Notes: generated from the sequence alone by a model not told the origin. Shown: positions 16,671 to 43,470, numbered from the stretch's first letter. The stretch is DNA of 64,000 nt from a virus (IMGVR_UViG_3300046615_000208:64001-128000); one strand, 5' to 3'. Numbers and translations are program-made.

Positions 16671-16721
16671 GGTTACAAAAAGCGCATATGGTATCATGGT
16701 ATAAGCCTACTAAGGAGAACC

Positions 16722-17390
16722 ATGGTACGACACCGCGCAAACCTACGAGACCGAGTAAGGACATGGTGGGACAAGAAGCCTGTGTCCCCTGTAGTTCTTC
16801 CGATTGTAGGAGGGGTATTGTCAGTCCTGTTGTTGATAGGGCTGGCATTAACCATTCCTCCGATCATCCACGACATCATCACGCCCAAGGTACCGGAGAA
16901 GACTACCCAACAGACGACGCCCACACCGGAGCAGAGTCTTCCGCCTGTGTTGCAGGTGCCTACTACACAGCCAAGCCCTAAGGCCACACAGGAACCTGTA
17001 CCTGTTCAGGCACCACAACCGGTAGCACCGGGGCCTCAGAACATTCCAGAGCCTGTAGCTCCACAGCCAGTGCCCGTACAGCCGGTGCAACCCTTCCAGC
17101 CGCAACCTGTACCGCAGAAACCACAGCCGGTACCTGTACAACCACCGCAGGTACCACAGGTGCCACACCTACCACCGCTACCGCCTCTGTTGCCAGTACC
17201 ACAGCCACTGCCGTTGCCATTACCATTGCCAAGTCTTCCAGAGGTCCTAGAGCCTGTTGTACCACCTATCCTAGGTCCGGTATTGGAGAAGCCACTGGAC
17301 ACACTAGATAAGGCTGTGGGAGGCACGCTGGACACAGTTGATAAGACAGTGGACGGTGTCACCGGAATCGTCGGAGGATTACTTCCATAG
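16722..17390 (+). CDS. membrane-anchored Pro/Gln-rich protein
   Basis: one TM followed by PQP/PVP low-complexity stalk and LDTxDKxV repeats. Confidence 0.75.
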   Translation: MVRHRANLRDRVRTWWDKKPVSPVVLPIVGGVLSVLLLIGLALTIPPIIHDIITPKVPEKTTQQTTPTPEQSLPPVLQVPTTQPSPKATQEPVPVQAPQPVAPGPQNIPEPVAPQPVPVQPVQPFQPQPVPQKPQPVPVQPPQVPQVPHLPPLPPLLPVPQPLPLPLPLPSLPEVLEPVVPPILGPVLEKPLDTLDKAVGGTLDTVDKTVDGVTGIVGGLLP

Positions 17391-17452
17391 TTACAAGAAA
17401 CGCTTAGAGGCATCAGCTTGCGTAGCTGGTGCCTCTTTGCTATTCTAGAGGC

Positions 17453-17986
17453 ATGAGAACGAAATGCGTACTTTGTAACTGTCGGATCAAAGACCGCCAC
17501 GCGGAACGTAAGACCTGCTCTACCGAATGCCGAAGCTCGTACAAGTGGAAGATGCGGACCATGGCTAAACACCACGACCGAAGCACTTCCGGTCAGCGCC
17601 CCAGCTTCAAGCCCGAAGACTGGACAAGCATCCTGAACAGGCATGGCAGGCGTTGTGCGTACTGCGGTACCAAGAAGGGGAAGATGACAATGGACCATGT
17701 CCTACCGCTCTCACGTGGCGGACGACACTGTGTCTCCAACGTCGTCCCTGCTTGCGGCCAGTGCAACAAGACCAAGGCTGACATGACCCTCATGGAGTGG
17801 AAGCGGAAGAACCTGTACGATCTGCGTCCGTGGACCATGACCACCAACGGGATCAAGATGAAGCGAGCCAAGTCTGGTAAGCTGAACTCCACTCCGCTCT
17901 TCGAGCAGATGCTGAGGGAGATGGCTGACAGGGCGCTTCTGGAGAAGTACCCGCTGACAGTTGACTACACTGACATACTGGTGTAA
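17453..17986 (+). CDS. HNH endonuclease
   Basis: CAYCG...TMDHVLPLSRGG...SNVVPACGQCNKTK; N-terminal CxxC...CxxxC; leaderless after TTGCGT-17-TATTCT. Confidence 0.9.
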   Translation: MRTKCVLCNCRIKDRHAERKTCSTECRSSYKWKMRTMAKHHDRSTSGQRPSFKPEDWTSILNRHGRRCAYCGTKKGKMTMDHVLPLSRGGRHCVSNVVPACGQCNKTKADMTLMEWKRKNLYDLRPWTMTTNGIKMKRAKSGKLNSTPLFEQMLREMADRALLEKYPLTVDYTDILV

Positions 17987-18017
17987 GCTGGAGGTAAGAC
18001 TAGAGAAAGGACAACTT

Positions 18018-18392
18018 ATGTTCGGGCGCAACAAGGGTAGGGGTTCCTATCCTGACCCGCCACAGGAGGCACCACGCCAGCGTATGCGGGCCTCATTCGG
18101 TGGCAGTAGGGGAGAGGATGTAATCTCCCGTAGGCTGGACCGACAGGACCCGGTACCGACTCCAGAAGAAAAGTCTGCGGCACTGGAAGCAATCATCAAC
18201 GCTGTACGTACAGCACAGGAACTGGGAGCATCACCGCACGAGGTTGACTCCGCTGTTCGTGGGTTCAACGTAGCAGTTACAAGAAACGCACAGGAAGGAT
18301 ATAACAATGGCGGACTACTACCCGAAGAGCCGTACGGATCACATCGCCAAGGCGATGAAGCTGGACCCCATCAAGGAGGAAATGGCTTCTAA
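18018..18392 (+). CDS. hypothetical protein
   Basis: AAAGGA RBS. Confidence 0.6.
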   Translation: MFGRNKGRGSYPDPPQEAPRQRMRASFGGSRGEDVISRRLDRQDPVPTPEEKSAALEAIINAVRTAQELGASPHEVDSAVRGFNVAVTRNAQEGYNNGGLLPEEPYGSHRQGDEAGPHQGGNGF

Positions 18393-18534
18393 GATTTACG
18401 CCGAACGGTACTCCGACTGCTTCTGCCGAGAGGATCACGACATCAATCCGCCGTGCGGGTCTGTGGTGTGGGCACGAAAAAAGGTGGATGAAATCTTGGC
18501 AATCGCAGAGAAAGCTGGTATGCTGAAGTCATGA
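18307..18534 (+). CDS. hypothetical protein
   Basis: AAGGA RBS. Confidence 0.65.
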   Translation: MADYYPKSRTDHIAKAMKLDPIKEEMASKIYAERYSDCFCREDHDINPPCGSVVWARKKVDEILAIAEKAGMLKS

Positions 18535-18719
18535 AACAGCGAGTAGTAATCCAAGACCTGCACAGTGCCACCATGCCAGTGATCACAGAAATGATCGTGT
18601 CTGACGTCCAAGCCATAACAGGAGACCTGATCCGGTTCGAGCATGATAATGGTAGCGTTACCATCATCAACATCGCTTCGGGCTGGAATGTCTCCATCTC
18701 CGAATATGATGAAGACTGA
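18531..18719 (+). CDS. hypothetical protein
   Basis: ATGA overlap. Confidence 0.6.
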   Translation: MKQRVVIQDLHSATMPVITEMIVSDVQAITGDLIRFEHDNGSVTIINIASGWNVSISEYDED

Positions 18720-19032
18720 TATGAAGATCATGCGGAGCAACTACGACAAGGCGCACCGTTGTCCCGGATGGGCAGGCCCAGCCCTCAAGGGCATCGAGCC
18801 GTCCATCTGCGCCAGTGGGTCCTTTGCCAAAGAGTTCCACATCCAGCAGTACTGGTATAACAAGGACCCGTACTGGCGCTTCCATAAGTGCCGCACGTGT
18901 GGTACGGTTGTACTCCCCAGCAACTTCCGTAAGTTCGATCCGGTGTGGTGGAAGTTCGCCGCTCAACGGAAGTGGGACAACTGGAAGTACGAACGAGAAC
19001 TTGACAAACGGAACAAGAACAACCTAGAATAG
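18706..19032 (+). CDS. Zn-binding hypothetical protein
   Basis: HRC...C...HKCRTCG. Confidence 0.65.
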   Translation: MMKTDMKIMRSNYDKAHRCPGWAGPALKGIEPSICASGSFAKEFHIQQYWYNKDPYWRFHKCRTCGTVVLPSNFRKFDPVWWKFAAQRKWDNWKYERELDKRNKNNLE

Positions 19033-19036
19033 GAAC

Positions 19037-19423
19037 ATGATGAAGAAACTTATTATTGCAGGCGTTATCGCCATTGCCGCTTTCTCGCTGACCGGCTGTC
19101 AGAACCTCGTCCAGAACGAACCGGTTGTGTGTACGGTGGTGGACAAGGACCGATCAACCGAATCCTCGAAGAACGGTTCCAAGTCCGTCTTCCGTATCTA
19201 CACCGAGAACTGTGGTGAGGACAACGAGACGCTGGGTCTTGCCGACAACATCTTGCAGGGCAACTTGCGCTCGTCGGACATGTACGCCAAGATCAAGGTA
19301 GGCGAGACCTACCGGTTCGAGACCGTAGGTATCCGTAACGGAGCCTTCTCATCCTTCCGCGAGATCGTACGGTTCACCAAGGTGTCGGCACCAGTGCCGG
19401 GAATGACGGAGCCTGCCAAGTGA
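19037..19423 (+). CDS. lipoprotein
   Basis: signal peptide with lipobox LTGC. Confidence 0.8.
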   Translation: MMKKLIIAGVIAIAAFSLTGCQNLVQNEPVVCTVVDKDRSTESSKNGSKSVFRIYTENCGEDNETLGLADNILQGNLRSSDMYAKIKVGETYRFETVGIRNGAFSSFREIVRFTKVSAPVPGMTEPAK

Positions 19424-19644
19424 CCAAGCTCCAGAAGATCATCAGCCTTACGGCGGCGTTCGTCCTCATGGTAGGCTTGAGTGCCTGTGCCACTGACGGG
19501 ACAGTATACAACGCGGACAAGACGTACGAGTTTACAATGACCATGAATGATGGTACGGTTGTACCATGCATCAAGCACGAGGACTTCTACGGGTTCGCTT
19601 GCAACTTCGACAAGGCAGTCCGGTCCAACACACCGAAGCCATGA
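19420..19644 (+). CDS. small lipoprotein
   Basis: signal peptide with lipobox LSAC. Confidence 0.75.
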   Translation: MTKLQKIISLTAAFVLMVGLSACATDGTVYNADKTYEFTMTMNDGTVVPCIKHEDFYGFACNFDKAVRSNTPKP

Positions 19645-19826
19645 CCGAAGACGGGACTTTCGAAAAGGGAGACCGTGTCAAGATCAACGCTCCGAAGGAG
19701 ACCTGCCACGGACGGACTGGCGTAGTTGACAACTACACCGAGTCTGGTAAGCTCATCTACGTAACCACTCAGACCGGCAGGGTCTGGGTGTATCCGTGGG
19801 AGATAGCCCTACACAAGGAGAGGTAG
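19641..19826 (+). CDS. SH3/KOW-like small protein
   Basis: FEKGDRVKI...HGRTGVV. Confidence 0.7.
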   Translation: MTEDGTFEKGDRVKINAPKETCHGRTGVVDNYTESGKLIYVTTQTGRVWVYPWEIALHKER

Positions 19827-19828
19827 CA

Positions 19829-20011
19829 ATGTACAAAGAAGGCGACAAGGTCCGCATCATTGCCAAGGATGATTCCGAGTACGGCAGGGTATGTCCTGTT
19901 CACGGTATGTCCGGAGACCACACCGTGTGGGTCAACGTAGGGTTCGGTATGGCTTGGCGCTACCGACCCGATGAAGTAGAAGCAGTAACCGACAACCAAG
20001 AAGGAGAATAG
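19829..20011 (+). CDS. SH3/KOW-like small protein
   Basis: YKEGDKVRI. Confidence 0.7.
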   Translation: MYKEGDKVRIIAKDDSEYGRVCPVHGMSGDHTVWVNVGFGMAWRYRPDEVEAVTDNQEGE

Positions 20012-20014
20012 ACA

Positions 20015-20152
20015 ATGGCACGATTCAATGGTAAGCAGTACAAGGGTGCGCAGAAGGCACTCAAGGAAATCCGCCGAGAAGAGGCAGAGAAGCGTGACGC
20101 GCAGACCCTGCCCGAGAACCGCCGTCAGGCGCGTCTTACAAAAGACGCATAG
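20015..20152 (+). CDS. small basic protein
   Basis: AAGGAG RBS; MARFNGKQYKGAQK...LTKDA, whose last codons are the repeat motif. Confidence 0.65.
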   Translation: MARFNGKQYKGAQKALKEIRREEAEKRDAQTLPENRRQARLTKDA

Positions 20153-20241
20153 CTCGACCTCATGCGGCTACCGTGTTGACAGCAGCACGGTGGCCGTATA
20201 AGCTTTAGCTACAAGATCAAATCAAACCGAAAGGGAAGATC

Positions 20242-20730
20242 ATGAAGTTTGCAGTCGGAGACAAGGTAACCATCAAATCCGCGAGCAAGACGTGGAGCGG
20301 GGTACGTGCCGTGGTTAAGGAGCATGATTCCGAAGAGAAGATGTACCCGTACACGCTGACCCTGATCGATGATACCAGTACCGGATCGTACAAGAGCGGC
20401 GATACCGCCGAGGCATTCCGAGAGGATGAACTGGTGGCGATGGCTGACGTGGTTGCGGCAGACATCGAGAAGGCCAAGCAACTGCTCCAGAAGCACGGTA
20501 TCCCCTTCCGCATCTACTCTCGCGAGGACGTGGACAAGATGCTGAACGTGTACGAACAGGACCCGAACGATCCACTGGATACCCGTACGTTCCGCAGTGA
20601 GATCGCCGCCTTCATCATGGAGGGGCAGGACTGGAAGAATCTCTCTGACAAGGGGCAGGACGACGAGGCCGCTATCTGGGACATGGTAGAGGGTGCACGT
20701 AACGATCACCCGGAATGGTTCGTGAACTGA
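20242..20730 (+). CDS. SH3-like domain protein
   Basis: FAVGDKVTI. Confidence 0.75.
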   Translation: MKFAVGDKVTIKSASKTWSGVRAVVKEHDSEEKMYPYTLTLIDDTSTGSYKSGDTAEAFREDELVAMADVVAADIEKAKQLLQKHGIPFRIYSREDVDKMLNVYEQDPNDPLDTRTFRSEIAAFIMEGQDWKNLSDKGQDDEAAIWDMVEGARNDHPEWFVN

Positions 20731-20918
20731 TGGCACGGATGAGTTTCACGGTTGAGGCCGTGGGTGAGAAAGTACGACTAAAGCAGGAGGACGGTACCTA
20801 CACGGACTTCTCCCCTGCTCCTGCCAACCAGATGGCAGGAGGTTTAATTAAGGCGGCGATGGAAGCAAACGGGCAGATACCCCCGAAGGCACTTACGATC
20901 ACGTTTCACTTCGAATAG
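20730..20918 (+). CDS. hypothetical protein
   Basis: TGATG coupling. Confidence 0.6.
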   Translation: MARMSFTVEAVGEKVRLKQEDGTYTDFSPAPANQMAGGLIKAAMEANGQIPPKALTITFHFE

Positions 20919-20968
20919 TTACAAGAAACGCATTTGACACCCCCGACCGAGGAAGGTAGGCTGTAGGT

Positions 20969-21256
20969 ATGAAGACAGACGGAACACCAGAGACCGAGTT
21001 CGAAGAGGCCATGCCGCTGCTCGCCGCTATCGTAGGGCAGAACGCACGTGACCTCCAGTGGACTAACGACCAACTGCTGGCAAGCAAGGAGCGACAGCTT
21101 CGCCAGATGCAACAGGACTACGTGAAGCTGTACGCGTCCATGCAGAAGGTGGCAGAACGTACCGACTCCGCCACTGCCTACAGCGCACTGGACAGGTTCT
21201 GGCACGTGAACGAAGATGCCAAGAAAGAACTTGCCAAACCGGATGATGTGTACTAG
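20969..21256 (+). CDS. coiled-coil hypothetical protein
   Basis: leaderless after TTGACA-17-TAGGCT. Confidence 0.7.
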   Translation: MKTDGTPETEFEEAMPLLAAIVGQNARDLQWTNDQLLASKERQLRQMQQDYVKLYASMQKVAERTDSATAYSALDRFWHVNEDAKKELAKPDDVY

Positions 21257-21288
21257 ACTGGTATTACACCAAGCGAAAGGAAAAGAAC

Positions 21289-21648
21289 ATGTGGCAAGAT
21301 AAGCTTAAGTTCAGCGTCGGAGACACCGTCAAGATCGTCCGGGACAACAAGGTCTGGAACGGATCGGTGGCAAAGATCGCGGCAATCACCAACGACGCAC
21401 GGTACCCCTACCTGCTTCACTTCATTTCCTCATCGCGGCCCAACACCGTGGGCGAGAAGTTTGAGTGGGACGAGGAATCGCTCGACCGCCATGACATGAA
21501 CCAGCGTGTCAAGCTGGAGCGGATCATTGCGGAGAAGTTCTCCCATCCGGTAGATGTGTTCTACTCACCGACTACCGGCTGTGCGGTAGTCATGGCACCG
21601 AACGGATACCTGTTCCGTATCCTTGCCGATGGGACCATCGACAAGTGA
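21289..21648 (+). CDS. SH3-like domain protein
   Basis: FSVGDTVKI; resembles the N-terminus of 20242..20730. Confidence 0.75.
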   Translation: MWQDKLKFSVGDTVKIVRDNKVWNGSVAKIAAITNDARYPYLLHFISSSRPNTVGEKFEWDEESLDRHDMNQRVKLERIIAEKFSHPVDVFYSPTTGCAVVMAPNGYLFRILADGTIDK

Positions 21649-21802
21649 TGTGTAATGAATGCAAGTTAGACAACGGCTGGCACCACGTAGAGTGTAGTCA
21701 AAAGGTATCCATACTCTGGACCACTACACTCACCAAATAAATAGAACCGACCCGAAGGGCCATCCACTTGACAGTGAGTGGCCCTTTGTGTATGCTAGAG
21801 AT

Positions 21803-22015
21803 ATGAAGAAAGCATGGCAGTACCGTAAAGGTGTAGTCCTCATTAAGGGAGACACCGACCCGCTGTTGTCCGCTACGCTGACCAAGGTGGGCTGGAACAA
21901 GTGGCGGCATCACTACTACAGGCAGACCGACCCCAACCTAGACGGCTGGGAGATACGGACTGACAAGCATGTTCAGACACTAATTGACAACAGAGCAGTG
22001 GAGAGGGTAGTGTAG
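21803..22015 (+). CDS. hypothetical protein (paralog of next gene)
   Basis: YRKGVV...ATLTKVGWNKW. Confidence 0.7.
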   Translation: MKKAWQYRKGVVLIKGDTDPLLSATLTKVGWNKWRHHYYRQTDPNLDGWEIRTDKHVQTLIDNRAVERVV

Positions 22016-22019
22016 AGAT

Positions 22020-22238
22020 ATGAAGAAGCCAAGCAGATACCGTGTCGGATCAGTGTTCATCTACAACGCAGGTCACCCGATGTTCGAAGCCACTTTGTCC
22101 AAGGTAGGACCGGACCACTGGATGAAGGTCAACCACAAGAGCAAGGTCCGCCAGTACTACAGTAACAAAACGGTAGAGGACCTGTTCGCTACCAAGCTGT
22201 TGACTCTGATTCATGACTCTGGTAAGGTGGAGCGGTAG
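22020..22238 (+). CDS. hypothetical protein (paralog of previous gene)
   Basis: YRVGSV...ATLSKVGPDHW. Confidence 0.7.
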   Translation: MKKPSRYRVGSVFIYNAGHPMFEATLSKVGPDHWMKVNHKSKVRQYYSNKTVEDLFATKLLTLIHDSGKVER

Positions 22239-22342
22239 GTTGACAAGGGTGCGGTAAGTGTGTATATTATCTACTTCCAAGGTTTACGGTATAATAGAGG
22301 TAGAAGCACAATCCTCTAGATACTAAAGCACTAGGAACTAAG

Positions 22343-23330: not shown

Positions 23331-23957
23331 ATGAACACATTCAAAGAAGGCGACCGTGTCTCCCACCCGAACTACGGAGAGGGTACCGTTACCAGTCCTT
23401 ACCCCGGAACCGGATGGCCTACCGTTCGGTTCGACACCGATGGATTGATCTCGACCGATGCTTCCCTGCTGACACCGGTACGGGCAACTCCTGCCCCACT
23501 TTTCAAGACAGGCGACCGCGTCATTCATCCGCTCCATGGTCCCGCTGGTGTTCTCGGATACGATGCGGCCCGTAAGCTGGTGGAGATCGTGCCGAACACG
23601 TACGGTGGGAACTCCACTCACGTCCATCCGTCCAGCTTGACACTGGCCGAACCGCCCACTAAGTTCAAGGTAGGAGACCGAGTCTCCCACCGCATCCACC
23701 GTGACGGTACCGTGGAAGACATACAGGCCAACGGGTTGCATGTCGTGAACATCGGCGGTAACCGTGTCTACATGGCACTGGAACACCAGATCAGCCATGC
23801 GGTACCGGAACCGACCTACCACATCTGCATCGAAGAGATTACCGGTGCCGCTCATGTTCCCGGTAGCCTTACCGCAAAAGAAGTTGCCAACTACATCGAG
23901 CATGCGCTAGACTGGCGGGTAGCTAAGGAAATCACGATCACCAAGGAAGGAAACTAA
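23331..23957 (+). CDS. triple SH3-like (FKxGDRVxH) repeat protein
   Basis: three repeats FKEGDRVSHP, FKTGDRVIHP, FKVGDRVSHR. Confidence 0.8.
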   Translation: MNTFKEGDRVSHPNYGEGTVTSPYPGTGWPTVRFDTDGLISTDASLLTPVRATPAPLFKTGDRVIHPLHGPAGVLGYDAARKLVEIVPNTYGGNSTHVHPSSLTLAEPPTKFKVGDRVSHRIHRDGTVEDIQANGLHVVNIGGNRVYMALEHQISHAVPEPTYHICIEEITGAAHVPGSLTAKEVANYIEHALDWRVAKEITITKEGN

Positions 23958-24220: not shown

Positions 24221-24250
24221 AGTTACAAAAAACGCATAGAAAGGAACAGC

Positions 24251-24391: not shown

Positions 24392-24452
24392 TTACAAAAA
24401 ACGCATAGCGGTCACGGTTTACATCGTGGCCGCTTTTGTGTATATTAGAGGC

Positions 24453-24653
24453 ATGGAGACATTCAAAGTAGGAGACAGAGTTATCTTCCGTCCGTCACAG
24501 GGCGAGGCGCTAGACGCTACCGTGACAGATGTATTCGGTACCGCCGAAGCGTTCGGCGGATCATACGGAATCAATCTGGACGAACCGTGGGCGGTCATTG
24601 GTGGCGAGACCGAGACAGCCGCTCACGGTATGGAACTTACAAAAAACGCATAG
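24453..24653 (+). CDS. SH3-like small protein
   Basis: FKVGDRVIF; leaderless. Confidence 0.7.
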   Translation: METFKVGDRVIFRPSQGEALDATVTDVFGTAEAFGGSYGINLDEPWAVIGGETETAAHGMELTKNA

Positions 24654-24688: not shown

Positions 24689-25081
24689 ATGGACATCAAG
24701 ACAACCGCAGTATGGATCAATCCCGACGACGAGTTCACCGATGAGATGGGCCACCGCCACAAGGCGCTACGGATCGACCGTGTCGAACGGACGGACGGGT
24801 ACTACGTCTACGTGGAAGGTCAGGGCTACCCTGAATTCTACCTGCGCACGCATGCGGTCACCATCCACGTCCCCGATACCAAGTTCCAACCGGGTGACTG
24901 GGTCACCGCCCGATCCGGTAAGGGTGACGTGTACCAGATCAGCCGTGCCTTCAAGGATCGTTGGGGGAAGACCTACTACGTGTTCGACAACGGATCGGTG
25001 GATATCCGCAAGCGGAACCGCTCCGGTTGGCACGAGGCAGAACGGGCCAACAAAGGTTACAAAAAACTCTTAGACTCGTAA
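24689..25081 (+). CDS. hypothetical protein, two beta-barrel-like halves
   Basis: leaderless; FQPGDWV. Confidence 0.7.
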   Translation: MDIKTTAVWINPDDEFTDEMGHRHKALRIDRVERTDGYYVYVEGQGYPEFYLRTHAVTIHVPDTKFQPGDWVTARSGKGDVYQISRAFKDRWGKTYYVFDNGSVDIRKRNRSGWHEAERANKGYKKLLDS

Positions 25082-25283: not shown

Positions 25284-25493
25284 ATGAGTAAGAAACGGGC
25301 ACCGTTCAGTCTGGACCTGAACCTGAAGCTAGCAACCGTCAACCGGGATACGGATACGTCTATGTCCATTGACTTCTGGGACCGCAACGATGAGCAGGTG
25401 GCTGTGATCAATTCCAGCCCCGCCCAGCTTCAGGCGTTCGCTCTTCGCATCCTCCAGCAGGTCCAGTACAACCTAGAGGACCGGGAGAAGTAG
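25284..25493 (+). CDS. hypothetical protein
   Basis: AAGGAG RBS; bounded by motifs. Confidence 0.7.
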   Translation: MSKKRAPFSLDLNLKLATVNRDTDTSMSIDFWDRNDEQVAVINSSPAQLQAFALRILQQVQYNLEDREK

Positions 25494-25595
25494 TTACAAA
25501 AAACTCTTAGACCGATAGGGTTGACAAATTTAATACGGGTGCCGTAGTGTTGTCCTCATCAACCGAAAGGATAGCACTACCGAAAGGACCCCGAA

Positions 25596-26686: not shown

Positions 26687-27004
26687 ATGGCAAATCTCAA
26701 GTTCACCCCCCAGTCCCACGAAGAAGCTGCTAAGGTCCTGTCGTTCCGGGACTCGCTGATCATCGGCCACAACACCGAACTCCGCCGTCTAGGGGATGGT
26801 TCCATCGTTGCCACGTACCACGGCAACAGCATCGTACGGTACACCACTGAAGGTGTGTTCGCCACGTACGCAGGATGGGCCACCTCCACCACCACGAACC
26901 GCCTGAACCAGCTTGCACCGGCACGGTTCAACATCAAGAACCGGGAGCCGCAGATCAACGGTAAGACGCTGGAAGACTGGTCCGAATGGGTCAAGGTCAG
27001 CTAG
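26687..27004 (+). CDS. hypothetical protein
   Basis: AAGGAG RBS; YHGNSI..GWATSTTTNRLN. Confidence 0.75.
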   Translation: MANLKFTPQSHEEAAKVLSFRDSLIIGHNTELRRLGDGSIVATYHGNSIVRYTTEGVFATYAGWATSTTTNRLNQLAPARFNIKNREPQINGKTLEDWSEWVKVS

Positions 27005-27094
27005 TTACAAAAAACGCTTACCGTATCCGTTTGCTTCCCGCTTACGGATGCGGTAAGCTTGTTTTATCAGCCCAACCGATCCGAAAGGCACACA

Positions 27095-29067: not shown

Positions 29068-29215
29068 ACCTTGATTCTTTCACATTTTTGCGCCGGATGC
29101 AAGTCCGGAGCGTTACAAGAAACGCATTGTGATTTGGGTTTGCATGTGGCGTACGTATGCCGTAGAGTATTCATATCGGGTTCATCCGGAACCCCTCAAG
29201 CCTTGGAGGTCTCCC

Positions 29216-29845
29216 GTGGGCGCACCCCGTATCGGTAACGTTCTGAACGTTCCCACTAAGCGTGTTTATGCCGCTAACCCTAACTCGGCCCGTATCGTGG
29301 ACGTATGGCGGCAGGCTACCGTCTCTGAGCTTGTGGAGGGTATGGAATGGTACAAAGACGCGCACGCGCTCGCCGTCCGTCTCTCCCCTGCTGATCCGGC
29401 GCAGGCCGCTGGCGTTATCGCCGCGCTGTCTCCCATGATGGCATGGGGACAGAATGTCAATCTCGCCGTACGTGCCTATGCGGACGGTAAAGCATCCGGT
29501 GCGCTCTTTAGCAACGTTGCTAAAGCCAACCGTATCCTGTCCGGTGAGCGTCCGGAGGACGTACTGGGCGGCGATAAAGTACGCGCATTCTATGGCGTGA
29601 TCGCTAACCCTACGTCGGATGCGGTTGTCGTTGACCGGCACGCGTTTGACATCGCTGTAGGCCGCGTGACTAACAATGAGACGCGGCAGGCACTGGGCCG
29701 TAAGGGTGTCTATGAATCATTCGCTAGCGCCTATGTGCGGGCAGCTAAGACCATTGCACGTGAGACTGGCATGGATGTATCCGCCAGTCAGGTGCAGGCC
29801 GTTACGTGGACGGTATGGCGCAGGCTCAAGGGACTGGCCGAGTAG
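29216..29845 (+). CDS. conserved phage protein (DUF7178-like, glycosylase-like C-terminal motifs)
   Basis: WYKDAH...AGVIAALSP...W..N...KVRAFY...VVVDRHA...VQAVTW; GGAGG RBS before GTG. Confidence 0.65.
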   Translation: MGAPRIGNVLNVPTKRVYAANPNSARIVDVWRQATVSELVEGMEWYKDAHALAVRLSPADPAQAAGVIAALSPMMAWGQNVNLAVRAYADGKASGALFSNVAKANRILSGERPEDVLGGDKVRAFYGVIANPTSDAVVVDRHAFDIAVGRVTNNETRQALGRKGVYESFASAYVRAAKTIARETGMDVSASQVQAVTWTVWRRLKGLAE

Positions 29846-31216: not shown

Positions 31217-31224
31217 CCGACTTA

Positions 31225-33042: not shown

Positions 33043-33132
33043 GCGTTTTTTGTAAGGGAGCCGGTGTTGACAGCATCGGCTCCCTTGCACTAGATTAGGT
33101 ATTACAAACCAACTAGTCCACAGGAGGACATC

Positions 33133-34095: not shown

Positions 34096-34189
34096 GTTAC
34101 AAAAAACGCATATCGGGTGGGATTTGCATCCTGCCCGATATGCGTGTAATCTTTAGGTACAAGGTAAGAACAACGGCTAGGAGGCCACC

Positions 34190-35271: not shown

Positions 35272-35442
35272 ATGAACTTCGAAGCCGGAACCAAAGTCGA
35301 AATCCTCGAACGCGGCGCATGGGTAGGCCCGTTTGTCGTAACGCCTCATACGGCACGTACCGCCGATCATCTGGTACTCACCGGACCTAGCGGACTCTTC
35401 GAAGTCTACAACGACGCACCGTTCAACATCCGTAAGGCTTAG
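35272..35442 (+). CDS. small hypothetical protein
   Basis: AAGGGAG RBS; cassette. Confidence 0.7.
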   Translation: MNFEAGTKVEILERGAWVGPFVVTPHTARTADHLVLTGPSGLFEVYNDAPFNIRKA

Positions 35443-35539
35443 TTACAAAAACCGCTTAGGCCCTAGGACTTGCACCTAGGGCCTTAGGCGTGTAATGTTG
35501 TTCTTAGAGGGAGAGAGGGACTCTTCCGGATAGGGCACC

Positions 35540-35725
35540 ATGGAACTCTACAAGATCACCACAGCGGTCAAGGTCACTGAAAACCTCACGTGGGACCGCG
35601 TGTGTGACATTCTGGCAGTCTCCGACGATGGAGACGCGTGGGGCGCTCACGAGTGGCTCGAAGAGCGTGGAGAGTACCCGTTCCTGTCCGCCTACGGCGA
35701 CCAGATGATCCTGACTCGCATGTAG
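35540..35725 (+). CDS. hypothetical protein
   Basis: cassette gene. Confidence 0.7.
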   Translation: MELYKITTAVKVTENLTWDRVCDILAVSDDGDAWGAHEWLEERGEYPFLSAYGDQMILTRM

Positions 35726-35827
35726 GTTACAAAAACCGCTTAGGGAGTCGGACTTGCATCCGGCTCCCCTAGCGGGTAAGCTTTAGGTAATGGAGCAACC
35801 GGCTCCCGGAAGTCCTAGGAGGACACA

Positions 35828-37116: not shown

Positions 37117-37393
37117 TACAATAAACTCACAGACATACACTGAAGCCTCCGGAGATGACCACCAAATCTCTCCGGAGGCTTCGCCAATTGTGGGATAGTT
37201 GGCTTACAAAAAACGCGTAGCGGATAGGTTTGCATTCCGGCGCAAAGGTGGTAAGCTTAGAACATGGAAGGGGAGGTTAGGAGCCTCCACCCGCCAGACT
37301 AAGAATCTGGGGGTTCGGGAAGTGATCGCCCACCGATCACCGGCAGGCCAGTCCGCAACTGGCCGTATAACTCAACAGTGAAAGGTGGACACC

Positions 37394-37603
37394 ATGGTAG
37401 AAGTTCCCATGGAAGAGGCTGACGTTCTGGAACAGGTCAAGGCCAAGACGGGAGCGGTAGACGCGAAGGTGTCTGGGAGGCCCACAAACTGGGTCTGGTC
37501 GGTCCTGCTGGCATTCCCGGATGGTCCGGACGCCTACACGTTCCAGACGCGTCTGGTGGACGTAGAAGGCCCTGAGATTCGGTTCGTCGGCTTCGACTTC
37601 TAG
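37394..37603 (+). CDS. hypothetical protein
   Basis: stop overlaps motif. Confidence 0.7.
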   Translation: MVEVPMEEADVLEQVKAKTGAVDAKVSGRPTNWVWSVLLAFPDGPDAYTFQTRLVDVEGPEIRFVGFDF

Positions 37604-37712
37604 TTACAAAAAGCGCATAGCCTGTCTTCGGACAGGCTATTTGCATTTGGGCGCAAAGGTGGTAAGCTTATTCCATAAGCAGTTCACAACTCCACAGAGA
37701 AAAGAGAGACCA

Positions 37713-37919
37713 GTGAAGGTTTTCTTCGAAGCACTTGTCGATGGACAGTACGTCAACCAGAAGCGCCTCGCGGATATCCCGGATGAGAAAGCTTACGCTA
37801 GGGCGGCTAAGGCCTACCCGAACGATCCGGACTACGTGGAGGAAATGCTCGACGGACGCGGCTACATCACCATCAAGGGCCACAACTGCCGGTTCACTTA
37901 CCAGCAGGACAGCCTCTAG
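37713..37919 (+). CDS. hypothetical protein
   Basis: cassette gene. Confidence 0.7.
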   Translation: MKVFFEALVDGQYVNQKRLADIPDEKAYARAAKAYPNDPDYVEEMLDGRGYITIKGHNCRFTYQQDSL

Positions 37920-38022
37920 TTACAAATAGCGCATAGGGCCTCTACGGAGGCCCTATTTGCATTTGGGCGCAAAGGTGGTATCGTTGAGTTATCGGCAAGG
38001 GTTGCCGGTGAGAGAGGGAACC

Positions 38023-38337
38023 ATGGACAAGTACACGACTGAAGCTCTGGAAGCTGCGAAGAACAGCACTAGCTCGATGAGCGCGGGGGATCGCAACGCC
38101 GCTCCCTACCTGCTCAAGCTGGACACTGTGGAGCAGCGTAAGCGTGCTGTAGGGGACGCGCACACTCGGATGAACCTCATGGGGTTCCGCTACTCCGAAG
38201 CTGTCTACCACTCCGTTAGTGACCTGCTGAAGAACATTGCCGCAGGGGAAGAGGACAAGCCACTCTATGGCGAAGCCACTGCGAAGAAGTACCGGGACGC
38301 GGAAAACGAACGCCGGAAGCTGGAACGCGGCTACTGA
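38023..38337 (+). CDS. hypothetical protein
   Basis: GAGGG RBS; last gene of the + arm. Confidence 0.75.
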   Translation: MDKYTTEALEAAKNSTSSMSAGDRNAAPYLLKLDTVEQRKRAVGDAHTRMNLMGFRYSEAVYHSVSDLLKNIAAGEEDKPLYGEATAKKYRDAENERRKLERGY

Positions 38338-38351
38338 TACAAAAAGCGCTT

Positions 38352-38382
38352 AGGCTCTCATCCTCCGGGGTGGGAGCCTTTT
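38352..38382 (+). terminator. intrinsic terminator ending the + arm
   Basis: AGGCTCTCATCC-TCCG-GGGTGGGAGCCT-TTT. Confidence 0.7.
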
Positions 38383-38607
38383 GCTTTGCCTGCGGGTGGC
38401 CCTCTGTGACGTTCTGGGAGCCTCTGAGGCTCGGGGTGGCACTCTCACCCACGCGGGCGATTCTAGGGCCTTAGACGGGCACGTAAGGCCTGCGGTAGGT
38501 CTACACGTGCTGTGCGACTCTGGGCGGCTGTTTAAGGGCCTAACTGGGCGCAGACGTACAAAGACCCCCAACCTTTCGGTTGAGGGCCTCTGTGGGGCTG
38601 TGAGGGC

Positions 38608-38871
38608 CTAGAACGGCGGTTCAAACTCTGGGAGGTAAGTCCGGAGTTCCGGAGCGGGAAGTTCGGGGACTACGTGACCGTAAGGGCAAGCGTTGTCGTA
38701 GTCGAGGTAGTCGTGCTCTTCGCAGTAGTAGGCCTGTTCATCCGCGAAGTGATCGACGTTGTCCGCCGCCATTGCTTCGCGCCACGCGGAGTCATCCCGG
38801 TTGTAGTCCTGCTCTTCCTGCCACTGTACCTGAGACATTTTTTCCTCTCGTGGCCGGTGTTTCCGGCTCAT
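38608..38871 (-). CDS. acidic hypothetical protein
   Basis: last gene of the - arm; promoter TTGCGC-17-TAAGCT. Confidence 0.7.
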   Translation of the reverse strand: MSRKHRPREEKMSQVQWQEEQDYNRDDSAWREAMAADNVDHFADEQAYYCEEHDYLDYDNACPYGHVVPELPAPELRTYLPEFEPPF

Positions 38872-38935
38872 GTACTGAGCTTAGCACGGCAAACAGAAAA
38901 CGCGCAACCCCGAAGGGTTACGCGTTTTTTGTAGG

Positions 38936-39169
38936 CTACAGATCGTTCCGGTGTTCGTAATCCGAAACCAGCTTAGCCTCGATAGCTTCGTCAAGCTCTT
39001 CCCGTGTCACGAACGGCTTGTTAGGGTGTTCGTGTGACTCCATGGCCTCGCACTTTTCGCAAGTCTCGTACAGGTCCGGGAGGTAGATTGCGGCAACCCA
39101 AGATTCTTCACCGGTAGCCTTCGTCCACTCGGCAGCGGCTTCGTTGAACGGGATGAGTGATGCGGACAT
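38936..39169 (-). CDS. hypothetical protein
   Basis: AAGGAG RBS. Confidence 0.75.
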   Translation of the reverse strand: MSASLIPFNEAAAEWTKATGEESWVAAIYLPDLYETCEKCEAMESHEHPNKPFVTREELDEAIEAKLVSDYEHRNDL

Positions 39170-39261
39170 TGGTTTCTCCTTGGTTGTTTTTGACCTTGTA
39201 CCTAAAGCATAGCACGGTTTGGTGGAGCGTGTCTAGTCGGGAGGCTGTGCGTTTTTTGTAA

Positions 39262-39312
39262 GTCCCATTTTTATTTTATGGGTCCTCCGGTTTCCCTGCT
39301 GGTGGGCTTCAT
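39262..39312 (-). ncRNA. candidate small RNA, copy 2
   Basis: TTGACA-17-TAGACT then ATGAAGCCCACCAGCAGGGAAACCGGAGGACCCATAAAATAAAAATGGGAC. Confidence 0.5.
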
Positions 39313-39404
39313 GGTTCAAGTCTAAGGCCTGTCGGCCTGAGTGTCAAGCCTACGGCAGACACAAAAGAGGGGAGCCTTTCGGCTCCCCTCTTATGCGTTT
39401 TTTG

Positions 39405-39662
39405 TTACCATGCGAAGTAGCTTGAGGTCCGCCAGCTACGGAGGATGGTGTAATCGGTAAGGCGTTCGGCCTGTTCCCACGTGGTGGGCTGTACAAGGCC
39501 CGTAGCGGGGTTCAGAATGGCTGGCTTGACCGCGTGTACGCCGATGAGGATTGCAGGCTCTCCTTCGAGCGTGAAGCGCTTTGCGGCGATTGCCTCGCGG
39601 CGTTCCATGCTCACGATGGTGAGCGGCTGAGTGGCGAGGATTCGAGCGACTGTGCGGAACAT
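39405..39662 (-). CDS. hypothetical protein
   Basis: AGGGAG RBS. Confidence 0.7.
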   Translation of the reverse strand: MFRTVARILATQPLTIVSMERREAIAAKRFTLEGEPAILIGVHAVKPAILNPATGLVQPTTWEQAERLTDYTILRSWRTSSYFAW

Positions 39663-39752
39663 TTTGACTCCCTGACTGGTGGCTTGCTGTTGGTACAAGC
39701 TTAGCATAGGTCCGGTGCTGTTGCCAACACCGAACCTATGCGTTTTTTGTAG

Positions 39753-39998
39753 CTAGTCGATGTCCACCGCGACACGTGCCAGCGATCCGGTACCGAAGTA
39801 GTCCACATTCAGCAGGTACTCCGCGCCATTCCAGCGAGCGCGTGCGCCGCTCCTGTAGCCGTTGTCGAGCATGTGATCAGCGATGGCCTCGCTGGATGCG
39901 TTCTCGATGGCGTAGGCCTTGCCACGGACGACGTAGCGGCTTCCGGCCACTCCGCGAACTGTGCGCTGGGTCTGGTTCTTCTTGATGGTCTTTCCCAT
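39753..39998 (-). CDS. hypothetical protein
   Basis: AAGGAG RBS. Confidence 0.75.
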   Translation of the reverse strand: MGKTIKKNQTQRTVRGVAGSRYVVRGKAYAIENASSEAIADHMLDNGYRSGARARWNGAEYLLNVDYFGTGSLARVAVDID

Positions 39999-40094
39999 TG
40001 TCTTTGTGCTCCTTGTGAAGTGTGTTGTTGAGTTGCCCTAGTTGGCATTCCCGCTTAGGTGATACTTGAGTGTACCACCTAAGCGAGCAAACCG

Positions 40095-40343
40095 CTAGGG
40101 GAGTTCCAGTAGCCAAGTGTCTGAGTAGACATTCTTTCGGATGATAACGGTATCATCCTTTGCCAGTTCTTCCAGCTTCCGGGAGTAGTTCCGGATGTTT
40201 TCCGGAGTCTCCGCTATGTCGTGGTAGGAGAGGACATTCTCTACCGTCTTCCGGATGAGCGTTGCGCGATCCTGTGAGTGGGAATCGTAGAATCCATCGT
40301 GCCATTCTTCGATGTACTGGAGGATGTTTGCTTCGCGTGACAT
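40095..40343 (-). CDS. hypothetical protein
   Basis: AAGGAG RBS. Confidence 0.75.
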   Translation of the reverse strand: MSREANILQYIEEWHDGFYDSHSQDRATLIRKTVENVLSYHDIAETPENIRNYSRKLEELAKDDTVIIRKNVYSDTWLLELP

Positions 40344-40433
40344 GTCCTGCTCCTTTGTTCTCGGCTTGTTCCGATAACTAGAGTCTACGCTAGTCCGGAG
40401 AGTTATGCAACCCTCCGGACTAAGCGTTTTTTG

Positions 40434-40625
40434 TTAGTCTTCGAGGTCTTCGATCTCTTCCGCCTCTGCGGGCTGGAATCCGTGCTGGTCTTCGAGTTCT
40501 TCGAGGGTGGTGTAGAAGAATCCACCGATCCCATCCGGAGTGATGAAGTACATGTCATCCTTGCGGATGTAGTAGGCCGTGTCCACGGCGAGTTCGGAAC
40601 GCGGGGTGATGGTTGCCTGTGCCAT
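40434..40625 (-). CDS. very acidic small protein
   Basis: AAAGGA RBS; E/D-rich C-terminus. Confidence 0.75.
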   Translation of the reverse strand: MAQATITPRSELAVDTAYYIRKDDMYFITPDGIGGFFYTTLEELEDQHGFQPAEAEEIEDLED

Positions 40626-40713
40626 TGTTTTTTCCTTTGTTTGAGTGGCTATGTATCTAGCTTAGCCTAGGTGAGGGAGTCTTGCAACTCCCCCACCTAA
40701 GCGTTTTTTGTAA

Positions 40714-40968
40714 CTACGCTTTACCGTAGTGGCCACCATCCGGCAGGCCAGCTGTGCAGGGGTAGAAGTGGATCGGCCACGCGGCATCTTCGCCACCCTC
40801 AGCGAGGAAATCCGAGTTGTAGTCGAGCCACAGATCACGCTTGGAGTCGAACTCGTCGTTAAACCAGTCGTGGCCTTTGGTGGCCTTTGCAACGTCTGCA
40901 CAGTCTGCGCGGTGGACGCTGACGTCGTAGTCGTTGTTCCCGTTGCCGTTAATGGTTACCAGCTTCAT
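40714..40968 (-). CDS. hypothetical protein
   Basis: AAGGAG RBS; VHRADCADV. Confidence 0.75.
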   Translation of the reverse strand: MKLVTINGNGNNDYDVSVHRADCADVAKATKGHDWFNDEFDSKRDLWLDYNSDFLAEGGEDAAWPIHFYPCTAGLPDGGHYGKA

Positions 40969-41061
40969 GATGACTCCTTAGGTCTCGGCTTGTTCCGATA
41001 TGACTAGCGTACACGCAAAAGGTCCGAGATACAAATCTCGGACCCTATGCGTTTTTTGTAG

Positions 41062-41493
41062 CTAGCCGATGTAGATGCTCACCTTGTTGGCAACATCCCA
41101 GACGGCGAGTTGTTCGCGTTCCTTGGCAACGAGAATGGCCATCTCGTAGTCTTCGAACCACTCTGAGGCCTCTGCGTAGACGACTCCGGACTCTACCCAT
41201 GTTCCCATGAGTCCGAGGCCGTCAGTGGCTGCGTAAGCCATTCCCAGAGCGAATTGGTAGTCTCGTGTGTCCGAGTCTGCGAGATTGAACATGTGGGGCT
41301 TGTGGAGGCCTGACACGTAGTAGCCGTGCGTGTGCGTGGCGATTGCCATTGTGGGGCTGGAGAGGTCCAGCGTTACGCCACCGTTGGCGTGTGTCTCACG
41401 TGAGAGGGTGACGCCGCGAATCTGACCATAGGTCCGGAGCTTCGGGGTGACGCCGGAGTTTTCGTTACGCATGGTTTCGACGGTGACAGTCAT
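41062..41493 (-). CDS. hypothetical protein (paralog of 29941..30300)
   Basis: AGGAGG RBS; shared motifs. Confidence 0.8.
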   Translation of the reverse strand: MTVTVETMRNENSGVTPKLRTYGQIRGVTLSRETHANGGVTLDLSSPTMAIATHTHGYYVSGLHKPHMFNLADSDTRDYQFALGMAYAATDGLGLMGTWVESGVVYAEASEWFEDYEMAILVAKEREQLAVWDVANKVSIYIG

Positions 41494-41628
41494 TGTTTCC
41501 TCCTGAGTGGATCGGATGGTTTGATATGAAGAGCATACCACTACTTTAGGAGATGATGCAAACTACGCGATTGTTACGTGCGTTTTTTGTAAGTTGCGTG
41601 TGAGCGCGGATGCGTGTATGCTCAGAGT

Positions 41629-41682
41629 ATGAAGCAACCGATTGAAGCTGGGTCACTGGAGGACCCCTAAAATAAGTGGGCC
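41629..41682 (+). ncRNA. candidate small RNA, copy 3
   Basis: TTGCGT-17-TATGCT then ATGAAGCAACCGATTGAAGCTGGGTCACTGGAGGACCCCTAAAATAAGTGGGCC. Confidence 0.5.
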
Positions 41683-41782
41683 GGAAAGTAGGCATCACTC
41701 CATTCTCTCATAGTTTTTGGGTGGTTGTCAAGCTGCCGGAGGGCAAAGAAAAGGGGAGCCTTTCGGCTCCCCTTCCCTCACC

Positions 41783-42094
41783 TTAGAGGGTTTCGTACTT
41801 GCCGTCCGCCTGACGGTACTTGATGTACGTGCAACCCGCGTCATGCGTGGCCCAGTCGAGCGGCTGGAACGCGTCCTCCGAGTCCGCGTCACCATAGAAG
41901 TAGCCGGTGAAGTAGCAGTTGTCGTCGTCGTCGTACAGCTTGAAGTGGGTGCCCTTGCCAGCCTTGCCAGCCTTGATCGCGTCACGCTCTGCGGGGCTGG
42001 TGCCGTACACGCGGGGCTTCTCCAGCTTCTCCAGCTTCTCACCGAAGTTCGGGTTGTTCTCTTCGATTGCCGAGTGAGTGATCGTGAATCCCAT
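41783..42094 (-). CDS. hypothetical protein
   Basis: AGGAG RBS; FKLYDDDDNCYF.G...FQPLDWA..DAGCT.I.Y. Confidence 0.8.
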   Translation of the reverse strand: MGFTITHSAIEENNPNFGEKLEKLEKPRVYGTSPAERDAIKAGKAGKGTHFKLYDDDDNCYFTGYFYGDADSEDAFQPLDWATHDAGCTYIKYRQADGKYETL

Positions 42095-42199
42095 TGTGAC
42101 TCCTAAGTCCGTTTCTCAAGCTCCCTGCTTGATGACTTAAGTCTCTCATACATTCCGGACGGATGCAACTCCATTCTGACAATGCGTTTTTTGTAAGTG

Positions 42200-42258
42200 T
42201 GGTTTGTGGAGGTTGGAGTTTTTGGGGTCCTCTGGTTTCCCTGCCTCCGGAGCTTCAT
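42200..42258 (-). ncRNA. candidate small RNA, copy 4
   Basis: TTGACT-17-TAGACT then ATGAAGCTCCGGAGGCAGGGAAACCAGAGGACCCCAAAAA. Confidence 0.5.
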
Positions 42259-42360
42259 AGTATGAGTCTAAGGCCTATTCGGCGCAGAGTCAAGCGGCGC
42301 TGTGTGGCGTTCTAAGCCACGCAAAAGGACCCTACCGTAGTAGGGTCCTAGTGGCCGGTG

Positions 42361-42633
42361 CTAGTCGCAGCAGTGGCGGCTGGTGCACGTGTGGTTGTGG
42401 ATGTTGCACGCGCTGTCCGTCAGGATTCCCTCGGTGGACTCGGTACGCTCCACTTCCTGCATCTCGGAGGGGTCAGCGTATCCGCCCAGTTCCTGATCGC
42501 ACTCGGTGCACTCGGTGTTGCTGGTGGAGTACTCGCCACAGTTGGAGCAGGCGAACAGGGTGGGGCAGTCGCACTCGGTGTTGGCCGGTTCCATGTTTTC
42601 GTACTGCCGCTGTGCTGAGGCGAATCCGCGCAT
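42361..42633 (-). CDS. Cys-rich zinc-binding protein
   Basis: CDC, CSNC, CTEC, CNIH motifs. Confidence 0.7.
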   Translation of the reverse strand: MRGFASAQRQYENMEPANTECDCPTLFACSNCGEYSTSNTECTECDQELGGYADPSEMQEVERTESTEGILTDSACNIHNHTCTSRHCCD

Positions 42634-42730
42634 CTTGACTCCTAAGTCGTATCGGCTTGTTCCGATGTACTAAGCCTAAGGCATGCGGTGAGGGATTGCA
42701 ACACCATGCGGTGAAGCGTTTCTTGTAACC

Positions 42731-43180
42731 CTATGCGGTGCACTCTGGGTAGCTCCACAGTTCGTCGTATTCGAACTGGTGAGCGTAGGCCTCAGCCTCG
42801 CACTCGTTGGCTCCCATAGTGTGTGCAAGCTCATGGAACAGGATGTGATTCCCCCACGCTGTGTAGGCAAGCTCAGGGGAGATAAGGACAGCGTACTGTC
42901 CATTGTCCATAGGGACAGTGCATCCTCCCTGCCCAACAGTGGAGAGTTCAGCGCCACAGTTGTCTTCATTCTGGAACAGGAACACCACGTTCTCAGGGTA
43001 GTCTACGCCACCATCAGCAAGGGCCTCACGCGCCCAGAGTGAGGGTAGCTTGAATGGTGCGAGGGATAGGGTGGTGGAGTAGTTGGCAGTCTCCCTAACA
43101 GGCGCTGACGTGGGCGCTGGGGCCTGCACTGGTGCAAAGATAGCTGACAGTGTGAGCAGGATGGTGAGCATGATGTTCAC
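42731..43180 (-). CDS. secreted HExxH metallopeptidase-like protein
   Basis: signal peptide; ILFHELAHTMG...ECEAEAYA. Confidence 0.7.
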   Translation of the reverse strand: MNIMLTILLTLSAIFAPVQAPAPTSAPVRETANYSTTLSLAPFKLPSLWAREALADGGVDYPENVVFLFQNEDNCGAELSTVGQGGCTVPMDNGQYAVLISPELAYTAWGNHILFHELAHTMGANECEAEAYAHQFEYDELWSYPECTA

Positions 43181-43214
43181 TGTGACTCCCTTGTGAGTGG
43201 TTGACTAAGTCAAT

Positions 43215-43470
43215 CCTCTCATGAGTTTGTCTCATGTGTCAACTCGAAACACTAAGCGTCTTTTGTAAAGTTTGTGCCTTGTTTCTACACACGCGCACAT
43301 GTGCACGCGATTGTCCTCTATTGTTTGGTGTTTGTCAACATGCTGGCCCTAAGAGTTTTTTGTAACCCTCGTGTGGGAGTGCGTGATTATCCTCTAGTTT
43401 TTTGGGATTGTCAATGGGTTTGGCAAAGAGTTTTTTGTAACCTCGTGCGCGTGAAGCGTTTTTTGTAACG
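43215..43470 (-). promoter_or_regulatory. three tandem leftward promoters, each preceded by the motif
   Basis: TTGACA on the - strand near 43238-43243, 43334-43339 and 43409-43414, each 13-14 bp after a motif copy. Confidence 0.7.

Follow-up and report, generated by a model that had tools for sequence, protein, structure and literature searches.

In bacteriophage T5 the first-step-transfer region, a cluster of pre-early genes, lies in a long terminal repeat. SPO1 carries 24 host-takeover genes in a 13,185-bp terminal redundancy (PMC10531801), and in T4-type phages, from comparisons of RB49/phi1, PST/T4 and nt-1/KVP40, small regulatory cassettes known as promoter-early stem-loops (PeSLs) have been described (Arbiol et al. 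2010, PMC2839356; Comeau et al. 2014, PMC4122927), for which mini-circles, promoter strength and terminator activity have all been demonstrated (PMC2839356, PMC4122927). Short repeated sites are known from actinobacteriophages too, namely the stoperators of L5 and other Cluster A mycobacteriophages, where binding by a two-domain monomeric repressor illustrates how asymmetric sites are recognised (PMC9283540, PMC6550527), and a motif of 18 bp repeated 12 times in Microbacterium Cluster EC phages (PMC7302621). Here we analyse bases 64001–128000 of a 171,752-bp virus record (IMGVR_UViG_3300046615_000208), a stretch of 64,000 nucleotides that we call the window and whose coordinates are used below unless the genome is named. 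An original prediction had singled out in it a short motif, here called the box, as the mark of an array of self-contained gene cassettes. We put at roughly 60% the probability that the box is the upstream element of PeSL-like early promoter/terminator cassettes, probably bound by a protein, and at the same time a hot spot for recombination.

The box, GTTACAAAAAACGC, has 61 matches in the window when up to two mismatches are allowed, compared to 0.26 expected, and no shuffle reached that number; all matches with at most one mismatch in the whole genome fall within the window. Fifty-nine of the copies, in agreement with the predicted figure of about 60, lie within positions 16672–43469, where they mark the junctions between some 75 small genes; the distance from one copy to the next has a median of 383 nt (range 28–2351). 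The conserved core extends over 19 nt, A-GTTACAAAAAACGC-(A/T)TAG, or -1 to +17, and the box itself is counted as 18 nt. Ten positions of the core are invariant across the 59 copies, the G, C and T positions being as constant as the A-run, within which G is allowed at position 8 and C or G at positions 10–11. A second contig, G001 (95 kb), is the only other one in IMG/VR in which a box of the window type was found, and it contains 55 copies in the same two-arm arrangement.

That arrangement follows transcription, as had been claimed. In the rightward arm (16672–38349) the boxes lie on the + strand with promoters at a fixed offset, and in the leftward arm (38922–43469) they lie on the - strand, the two arms converging on each other; the last rightward box (38336–38349) is followed by a terminator hairpin (38352–38379, + strand) with a T-run, which agrees with the predicted convergence at terminators. 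Two copies depart from the strand rule. One, at 17466(-), has two mismatches, lies within an HNH gene and is probably a chance match; the other, at 33043–33056 (-), is a real inverted copy, set between the end of a + strand gene and the + strand promoter that follows it. The two matches outside the array, 1360(+) and 12886(-), are both within coding or long open frames. The first of these (1360–1373) is an exact copy at 14 of 14 positions, with neither hairpin nor promoter, inside a 116-codon frame in which it encodes ELQKTH; it is kept in G001, also as coding sequence, and the stretch around it presumably resembles the N-terminal region of NAD-dependent DNA ligases. This copy is probably a coincidence of coding.

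The junctions share a composite module that begins with the stop codon of the upstream gene. TA stands directly before 28 of the 59 boxes and forms a TAG that overlaps the first G of the box; in 25 of 56 long upstream frames the stop falls exactly at the box, and of the 33 stop codons that lie no more than 5 nt before a box 30 are TAG, compared to 40% elsewhere in the genome. By inspection of the sequence, the two TAGs of the unit shut two of the three reading frames. Beyond the box, predicted promoters were sought with an actinobacterial-type definition (-35 TTGnnn, a spacer of 16–18 nt and -10 TAnnnT), random positions serving as the control. A predicted promoter follows within 30 nt of 43 of the 59 boxes (4.3% of random positions) and at an offset of 11–16 in 36 of them (0.7% of random positions), which bears out the view of the cassettes as self-contained units with promoters of their own. 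In 35 copies 13 or 14 nt separate the 14-mer from the -35, and in 45 a spacer of 17 nt lies between -35 and -10, the commonest hexamers being TTGACA or TTGCAT at -35 and TAAGCT at -10; this spacing places the box at about -63 to -46. A scan for promoters of the E. coli type found weak enrichment only (15 compared to 8.4), because the -10 of the array is of the TAnnnT type.

The box belongs to a single class of promoters. Under the same definition applied to the whole genome, it accompanies none of 70 promoter-like sites outside the array, compared to 24 of 35 inside. At the head of the leftward arm (43256–43469, - strand) four boxes accompany three tandem promoters with consensus-type TTGACA, without hairpin or upstream gene, and the box therefore accompanies promoters and not the 3' ends of genes alone. 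About 17 boxes have a promoter and lack a strong hairpin.

Where a hairpin is present it is intertwined with the promoter. A hairpin of -18 kcal/mol or stronger lies between the box and the -10 in 32 of the 59 copies, compared to 6.4% of random 48-nt windows, and in most of these its loop is the core of the -35. The module at 34096–34152 (+) may serve as the type example, with the box at 34096–34109, an 18-bp hairpin at 34106–34145, the -35 in its loop (34123–34128) and a -10 TAATCT at 34147–34152. In five copies (31221, 37603, 37919, 38922 and 39395) a tetraloop hairpin comes first and the -35 then follows, except at 31221; at 37603–37668 (+), for instance, the box is succeeded by a hairpin with a UUCG loop (37617–37640), a -35 TTTGCA (37640–37645) and a -10 TAAGCT (37663–37668).

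Plain-alignment RNAalifold applied to 24 modules returned no structure, because the hairpin arms share no sequence; each copy was therefore folded separately and the pairing of its own arms compared with pairing across copies. Complementarity is 9.66 of 10 positions within copies and 4.26 of 10 across copies, with all Watson-Crick types occurring at every stem position. The stems contain 35 G.T pairs compared to three A.C pairs, and in 31 of 32 copies folding of the sense RNA gives the lower energy (a mean of -26.9 kcal/mol, compared to -21.9 kcal/mol for the antisense, p=2.7e-6), from which it follows that the hairpin has been selected as RNA in the direction of the genes. Since it lies upstream of the next start site, it is part of the 3' end of the upstream message. 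Compensatory changes keep the pairing in orthologous hairpins of G001 (e.g. at 17390, 34096 and 40424). A T-run follows the stem in some copies only, and the hairpin could act as a terminator, an attenuator or a 3' stabiliser. An Rfam search of the array gave no family match. One candidate, an antisense terminator in which the reverse complement of the box would be the T-run after the hairpin, is ruled out by the ratio of 35 G.T to three A.C pairs and by the sense stability in 31 of 32 copies, and is also contradicted by the box of phage Racecar, which has no T-run adjoining the stem.

Racecar is one of the nearest cultured relatives. The portal protein encoded in the genome is closest to those of the Arthrobacter phages Racecar, Mimi, Talia1610 and Atuin (54–58% identity), followed by large Microbacterium phages and then Gordonia phages. 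The host is an actinobacterium, a reading that the TAnnnT form of the -10 and several apparently leaderless cassettes fit. In Racecar the box takes the form GTTACAAAA-CTTGA-ATAG, at the same distance from the -35, and the hairpin loop holds TTGAC; about 33 copies lie within a direct terminal repeat of exactly 20,468 bp and three outside it, 18 annotated genes end on the first base of the box, and the sense RNA is the more stable in all 20 of 20 hairpins. No box of the Racecar type was found in IMG/VR. Atuin, which was isolated on the same host strain as Racecar, has the variant CTTACAAAA-ATTTCG-GTAG. Common to the lineages are ACAAAA and the TAG at the base of the stem, while the middle of the box is specific to each (AACGC here, CTTGA in Racecar, ATTTCG in Atuin), and the occurrence of different middles in two lineages on one host strain argues for a reader encoded by the phage. 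In the Microbacterium phage Cece, which has a terminal repeat of 18,079 bp, no high-copy box was found. In the literature search the box sequence did not turn up in any relevant context, nor did a paper on the genomics of Racecar or Atuin.

Two further observations concern Racecar. At least one of its annotated gene starts, that of gene 15 (7224), lies within the predicted promoter and hairpin of the gene's module, well upstream of a ribosome site and ATG, and may have been called too early. A 501-aa protein encoded at 49914–51419 (+) of the window is 61% identical to the product of a Racecar gene annotated as having a ParB-like nuclease domain; that gene lies on the opposite strand within the Racecar terminal repeat and its homologue here lies 6 kb beyond the array, and the region has therefore been rearranged between the two phages.

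Comparison with relatives also reveals how cassettes come and go. The window and G001 consist of collinear blocks with 77–92% identity, interrupted by many insertions, deletions and replacements; tblastx between the two arrays was too noisy and ORF-level blastp was used instead. We collected 40 insertion/deletion events in the array core from 11 relatives (G001 and ten metagenome fragments of related arrays), not all of them independent as some are shared by descent. In 21 of the 40, representing 13 different boxes, homology resumes within -8 to +3 of the start of a box. In five events the flanking alignments overlap by 18–55 nt from the box start, and three-way alignments place the switch from left to right homology inside the shared 18–22 nt for four of the five overlap pairs. 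A check for gain and loss breakpoints at the motif in related phages had been suggested together with the original prediction, and the ends do fall there, with four crossovers inside the 18–22-nt box.

These four cases are 25056/25493 (compared with L051), 28200/28584 (L061), 35442/35726 (G001) and 27004 (an extra cassette in G001). In the first, boxes 25056–25069 and 25493–25506 (+), which share the same rare variant, flank a 437-bp segment that is absent from L051, the crossover lying within their shared 20 nt. Boxes 35442 and 35726 (35442–35739, + strand) flank one cassette that is absent from G001, with the crossover within the shared box and TTAGG, and at 27004–27017 (+) a single box corresponds to an extra cassette of about 1 kb between two boxes of G001 (G001 positions 45284 and 46280). 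The overlap events are specific evidence for crossover at the box. Other junctions lie past the promoter or between ribosome sites, and such scattered junctions fit general recombination on short homology rather than the action of a site-specific enzyme. One small gene occupies different junctions in the window and in G001, and two junctions that hold a gene in one of these genomes have nothing but a box in the other. As the box is the only long identical stretch present at all junctions, deletion, insertion and exchange of cassettes would proceed there by homologous recombination.

The explanation that we favour joins these elements into one unit. The 27-kb stretch would be the early, host-takeover-type region of a 172-kb actinobacteriophage related to Racecar and Atuin. 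In each unit the upstream gene would close with a TAG overlapping the 18-nt box; the hairpin after the box would form, in RNA of the sense strand, the 3' end of the preceding gene's message, whether as terminator, attenuator or stabiliser; the -35 of a host SigA-type promoter would lie in the loop of that hairpin or just past it, followed by a TAnnnT -10; and the next gene would begin with a leaderless start or a short leader carrying a ribosome site. The box would be the docking site of a protein that touches RNA polymerase, and so a common handle on about 45 promoters, whether for their activation or for their shut-off. Protein binding, with one DNA-binding factor reading the box as originally proposed, and early timing are what we infer, and as the reader a factor that the phage lineage encodes seems to us more probable than the C-terminal domain of the host's alpha subunit on its own. 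The label of early genes given to the cassettes at the outset gains indirect support from the location of the Racecar array in a terminal repeat and from a gene here for a Tudor protein of the CarD/TRCF-RID type. A bolder version, which we think less likely than not, makes the box the operator of a dedicated lineage-encoded protein, one that may enter the cell together with the DNA, controls some 45 early promoters as a single regulon and has a specificity that co-evolved with the variable half of the box. Were this true, a gene gained at a box would arrive pre-wired into the regulon, coupling regulation to mobility.

Several observations weigh against the favoured explanation. At three junctions (18276, 24222 and 25255) a box occurs without a promoter, with a ribosome site and ATG directly after it, and one of these promoterless boxes (24222–24235, + strand), which lacks a hairpin as well, is retained in G001, where a pure promoter element should decay. 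The distance between box and -35 shifts by 1–2 bp both within and between lineages, and seven copies are far off; some exceptions lie about one helical turn nearer (20918, 24636) or farther (37603, 37919), too few to speak for phasing. The promoters are predicted from sequence, and the reader of the box is a presumed one. Concerted evolution through recombination at the boxes could give rise to a lineage-specific half without a lineage-specific reader. Breakpoints at boxes are partly to be expected, since boxes stand at nearly every gene end and BLAST extends alignments through shared boxes. A possible terminal repeat of this phage could not be mapped from the single contig by synteny with Racecar, the gene order being rearranged.

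The box might instead act in RNA, as a 3'-untranslated signal between stop and hairpin (a processing or stability site, a termination helper or a ribosome spacer), its position upstream of a promoter being a by-product of the packing of terminator and promoter. In 33 of 56 cases the box begins at a stop codon or no more than 5 nt from one, the RNA hairpin, whose base often consists of the end of the box together with ATAG, has demonstrably been under selection as sense RNA, and the box-only copies stand at operon-internal junctions, where RNA is made but there is no promoter. We nevertheless consider this unlikely, as the head of the leftward arm has four boxes before three promoters with no gene or hairpin, some 17 boxes have a promoter without a strong hairpin, a spacer would need length and not ten invariant positions, and no Rfam family was matched.

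Still less likely, in our view, is that the box is read by nothing, its A-run being a generic UP-type or bent-DNA element for the alpha subunit and the rest of it being kept alike by gene conversion and the spread of cassettes. ACAAAA alone is common to all three lineages, recombination from box to box is directly seen, and the A-run lies near -57 to -52; UP distal subsites in E. coli lie near -57 to -52 as well. In the comparison with UP elements position and A-run fit, whereas the invariant G and C positions and the restriction to a single promoter class are untypical. Against this reading, invariance is not limited to the A-run and extends equally to G, C and T positions, the box is missing from 70 further promoter-like sites of the genome, and the hairpin arms beside the box are not homogenised (4.26 of 10 across copies), so conversion tracts would have to end at the very edge of the box.

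The parallel with L5 stoperators drawn in the original prediction proved weak. Under it a phage repressor would bind the boxes in one orientation, block both initiation and passing polymerase and thereby silence the region, and the boxes are indeed asymmetric sites of about 14 nt in short intergenic gaps, often over stop codons and co-oriented, as in Cluster A mycobacteriophages (PMC9283540, PMC6550527), with box-only junctions that would suit an elongation block. They all fall, however, within a single region of 27 kb and are not scattered along both arms of the genome, and they accompany one promoter class at a fixed distance upstream of the -35 instead of overlapping the promoters. Searches aimed at tyrosine and serine integrases (PF00589, PF00239) and at a resolvase, though not at a Cluster A-type repressor, gave no match, and in a genome rated 99% complete the missing integrases leave no sign of a temperate life style; we think this reading very unlikely, although a variant in which the repressor shuts off the region during lytic growth overlaps the explanation that we favour. 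Least probable of all is that the box is the site of a dedicated recombinase in an integron-like array from which cassettes are excised and into which they are inserted, for although crossovers occur within the box, one small gene sits at different junctions in two genomes, a bare box equals a gene at two junctions and the box stands at gene 3' ends as attC does on integron cassettes, the genome shows no recognisable integrase, resolvase, RecA, RecT or Erf, the crossover points vary, most cassettes carry their own promoter by the promoter scan and the box lacks an inverted repeat of the attC type.

The record, which comes from a large soil phage, is a single contig, called linear and rated 99% complete, that encodes rIIA, PhoH, primase and portal; megablast of 16 kb against a phage collection gave no match. 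When genes of the array were tested against Pfam, 25 remained below the family cut-off and three rose above it (HNH, CarD/TRCF-RID and DUF7178). The second of these is a 208-aa cassette gene at 23331–23957 (+), with repeats of the CarD/TRCF-RID (domain E=7e-8) and PcrA/UvrD-Tudor types; its PcrA/UvrD Tudor match is below the family cut-off (22.5 compared to 23.9 bits), and it aligns weakly with the C-terminal Tudor domain of UvrD (7egt). In cellular proteins a domain of the CarD/TRCF-RID type binds RNA polymerase. The product shares the start signature FK(E/V)GD with those of two nearby small genes, 24426–24653 and 19796–20011, and on these resemblances all three genes are candidates for binders of the beta subunit of the host RNA polymerase. 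The HNH endonuclease gene (17429–17986, + strand) has its box module at 17390 and is apparently leaderless, and the largest cassette gene (29129–29845, + strand) encodes 238 aa with DUF7178 (E=1e-51).

A gene of the adenylosuccinate synthetase family lies outside the array at genome positions 211–1674 (+), labelled by PHROGs as of the PurZ type (2-aminoadenine pathway), and has no homologue in Racecar; no datZ- or mazZ-like neighbour was seen among the adjacent ORFs scanned. If the DNA held 2-aminoadenine, the A-run of the box would look different to readers of the minor groove.

Other features concern the starts of transcripts. In eight modules (20918, 23269, 24391, 24636, 25056, 27520, 31381 and 37203) an ATG lies 6–7 nt past the -10, which suggests that these modules yield leaderless messages; such messages are common in Actinobacteria. 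A second promoter-like class without a box, TTGACA-N17-(TG)GTAGAAT, is frequent between 1 and 25 kb of the genome. A 15-nt mini-hairpin, ATCGGAACAATCCGA, occurs in six copies (0.11 expected) a few bases downstream of the -10, at the 5' end of predicted leaders (29908, 36153 and 36537 on the + strand; 40361, 40985 and 42652 on the - strand), and similar mini-hairpins are present in Racecar leaders.

The suggestion that this is an undescribed system goes too far, as cassettes of this kind and early genes in terminal repeats are known; the parts that we did not find described are the box itself, how densely it occurs and an arrangement that puts the -35 into the loop of a hairpin. The idea that regulatory cassettes are also recombination joints comes from T4-type phages, whose hosts are Gram-negative, and the array carries it over to large actinobacteriophages. 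Its cassettes carry an unusually sharp marker, an 18-nt box in about 60 copies, and their design is compact, in that the putative terminator hairpin of one gene holds the -35 of the next. As the same architecture is found in Racecar and Atuin, which are cultured and freely available isolates of the SEA-PHAGES programme that grow on a laboratory Arthrobacter strain, the function of the box, its presumed binder and the excision of cassettes are directly testable. The array moreover supplies a list of about 75 candidates for genes of host takeover, and at least one of them resembles an RNA polymerase binder.

Among the known systems, integrons differ from the array: no site-specific tyrosine recombinase was found here, most cassettes have their own promoter and the box is not an inverted repeat. 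The Cluster EC motif is similar in being short, asymmetric, in one orientation, located in small gaps upstream of genes and conserved within its cluster; it differs in having 5–12 copies rather than about 60, and neither a composite with hairpin and promoter nor recombination junctions have been reported for it. L5 stoperators likewise are many asymmetric sites of about 14 nt, oriented with transcription in short intergenic gaps of an actinobacteriophage, but they are distributed genome-wide in temperate phages and bound by the immunity repressor, whereas in the window phage no integrase was found and the boxes occur in one region, at a fixed place upstream of a promoter and beside a hairpin.

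In the early regions of SPO1 and T5, as in the array, small genes that are for the most part orphans are densely packed and have their own strong promoters of the host type (predicted here). The Racecar array lies in a direct terminal repeat of 20,468 bp, and at least one product of the window looks as though it is directed at RNA polymerase. There is no sequence relation to either phage, the terminal repeat that enters the comparison is that of Racecar, and a search of the SPO1 and T5 literature that was not exhaustive found no comparable shared upstream box.

The PeSLs, the other parallel drawn at the outset, are in our judgement the right one. They too are small units set between small orphan genes, in which a stretch rich in A and T is combined with a stem-loop and an early promoter of the host type; relatives differ by gene insertion, deletion or replacement at the units, with a proposed crossover in the AT-rich part, and regulation is carried by each cassette. 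In the array described here the A-run of the box corresponds to the AT-rich stretch, a host SigA-type promoter is recognisable in the sequence, and the ends of insertions and deletions lie in the units. The AT-rich part is here a near-invariant box of 18 nt and not merely AT-rich, the -35 is in most copies enclosed by the hairpin loop, whereas in PeSLs it comes after the stem-loop, the upstream stop codon forms part of the unit, and the unit is known from its sequence alone. With an actinobacterial host and a phage unrelated to T4, the array is an analogue of the PeSLs and not a member of that group by descent.

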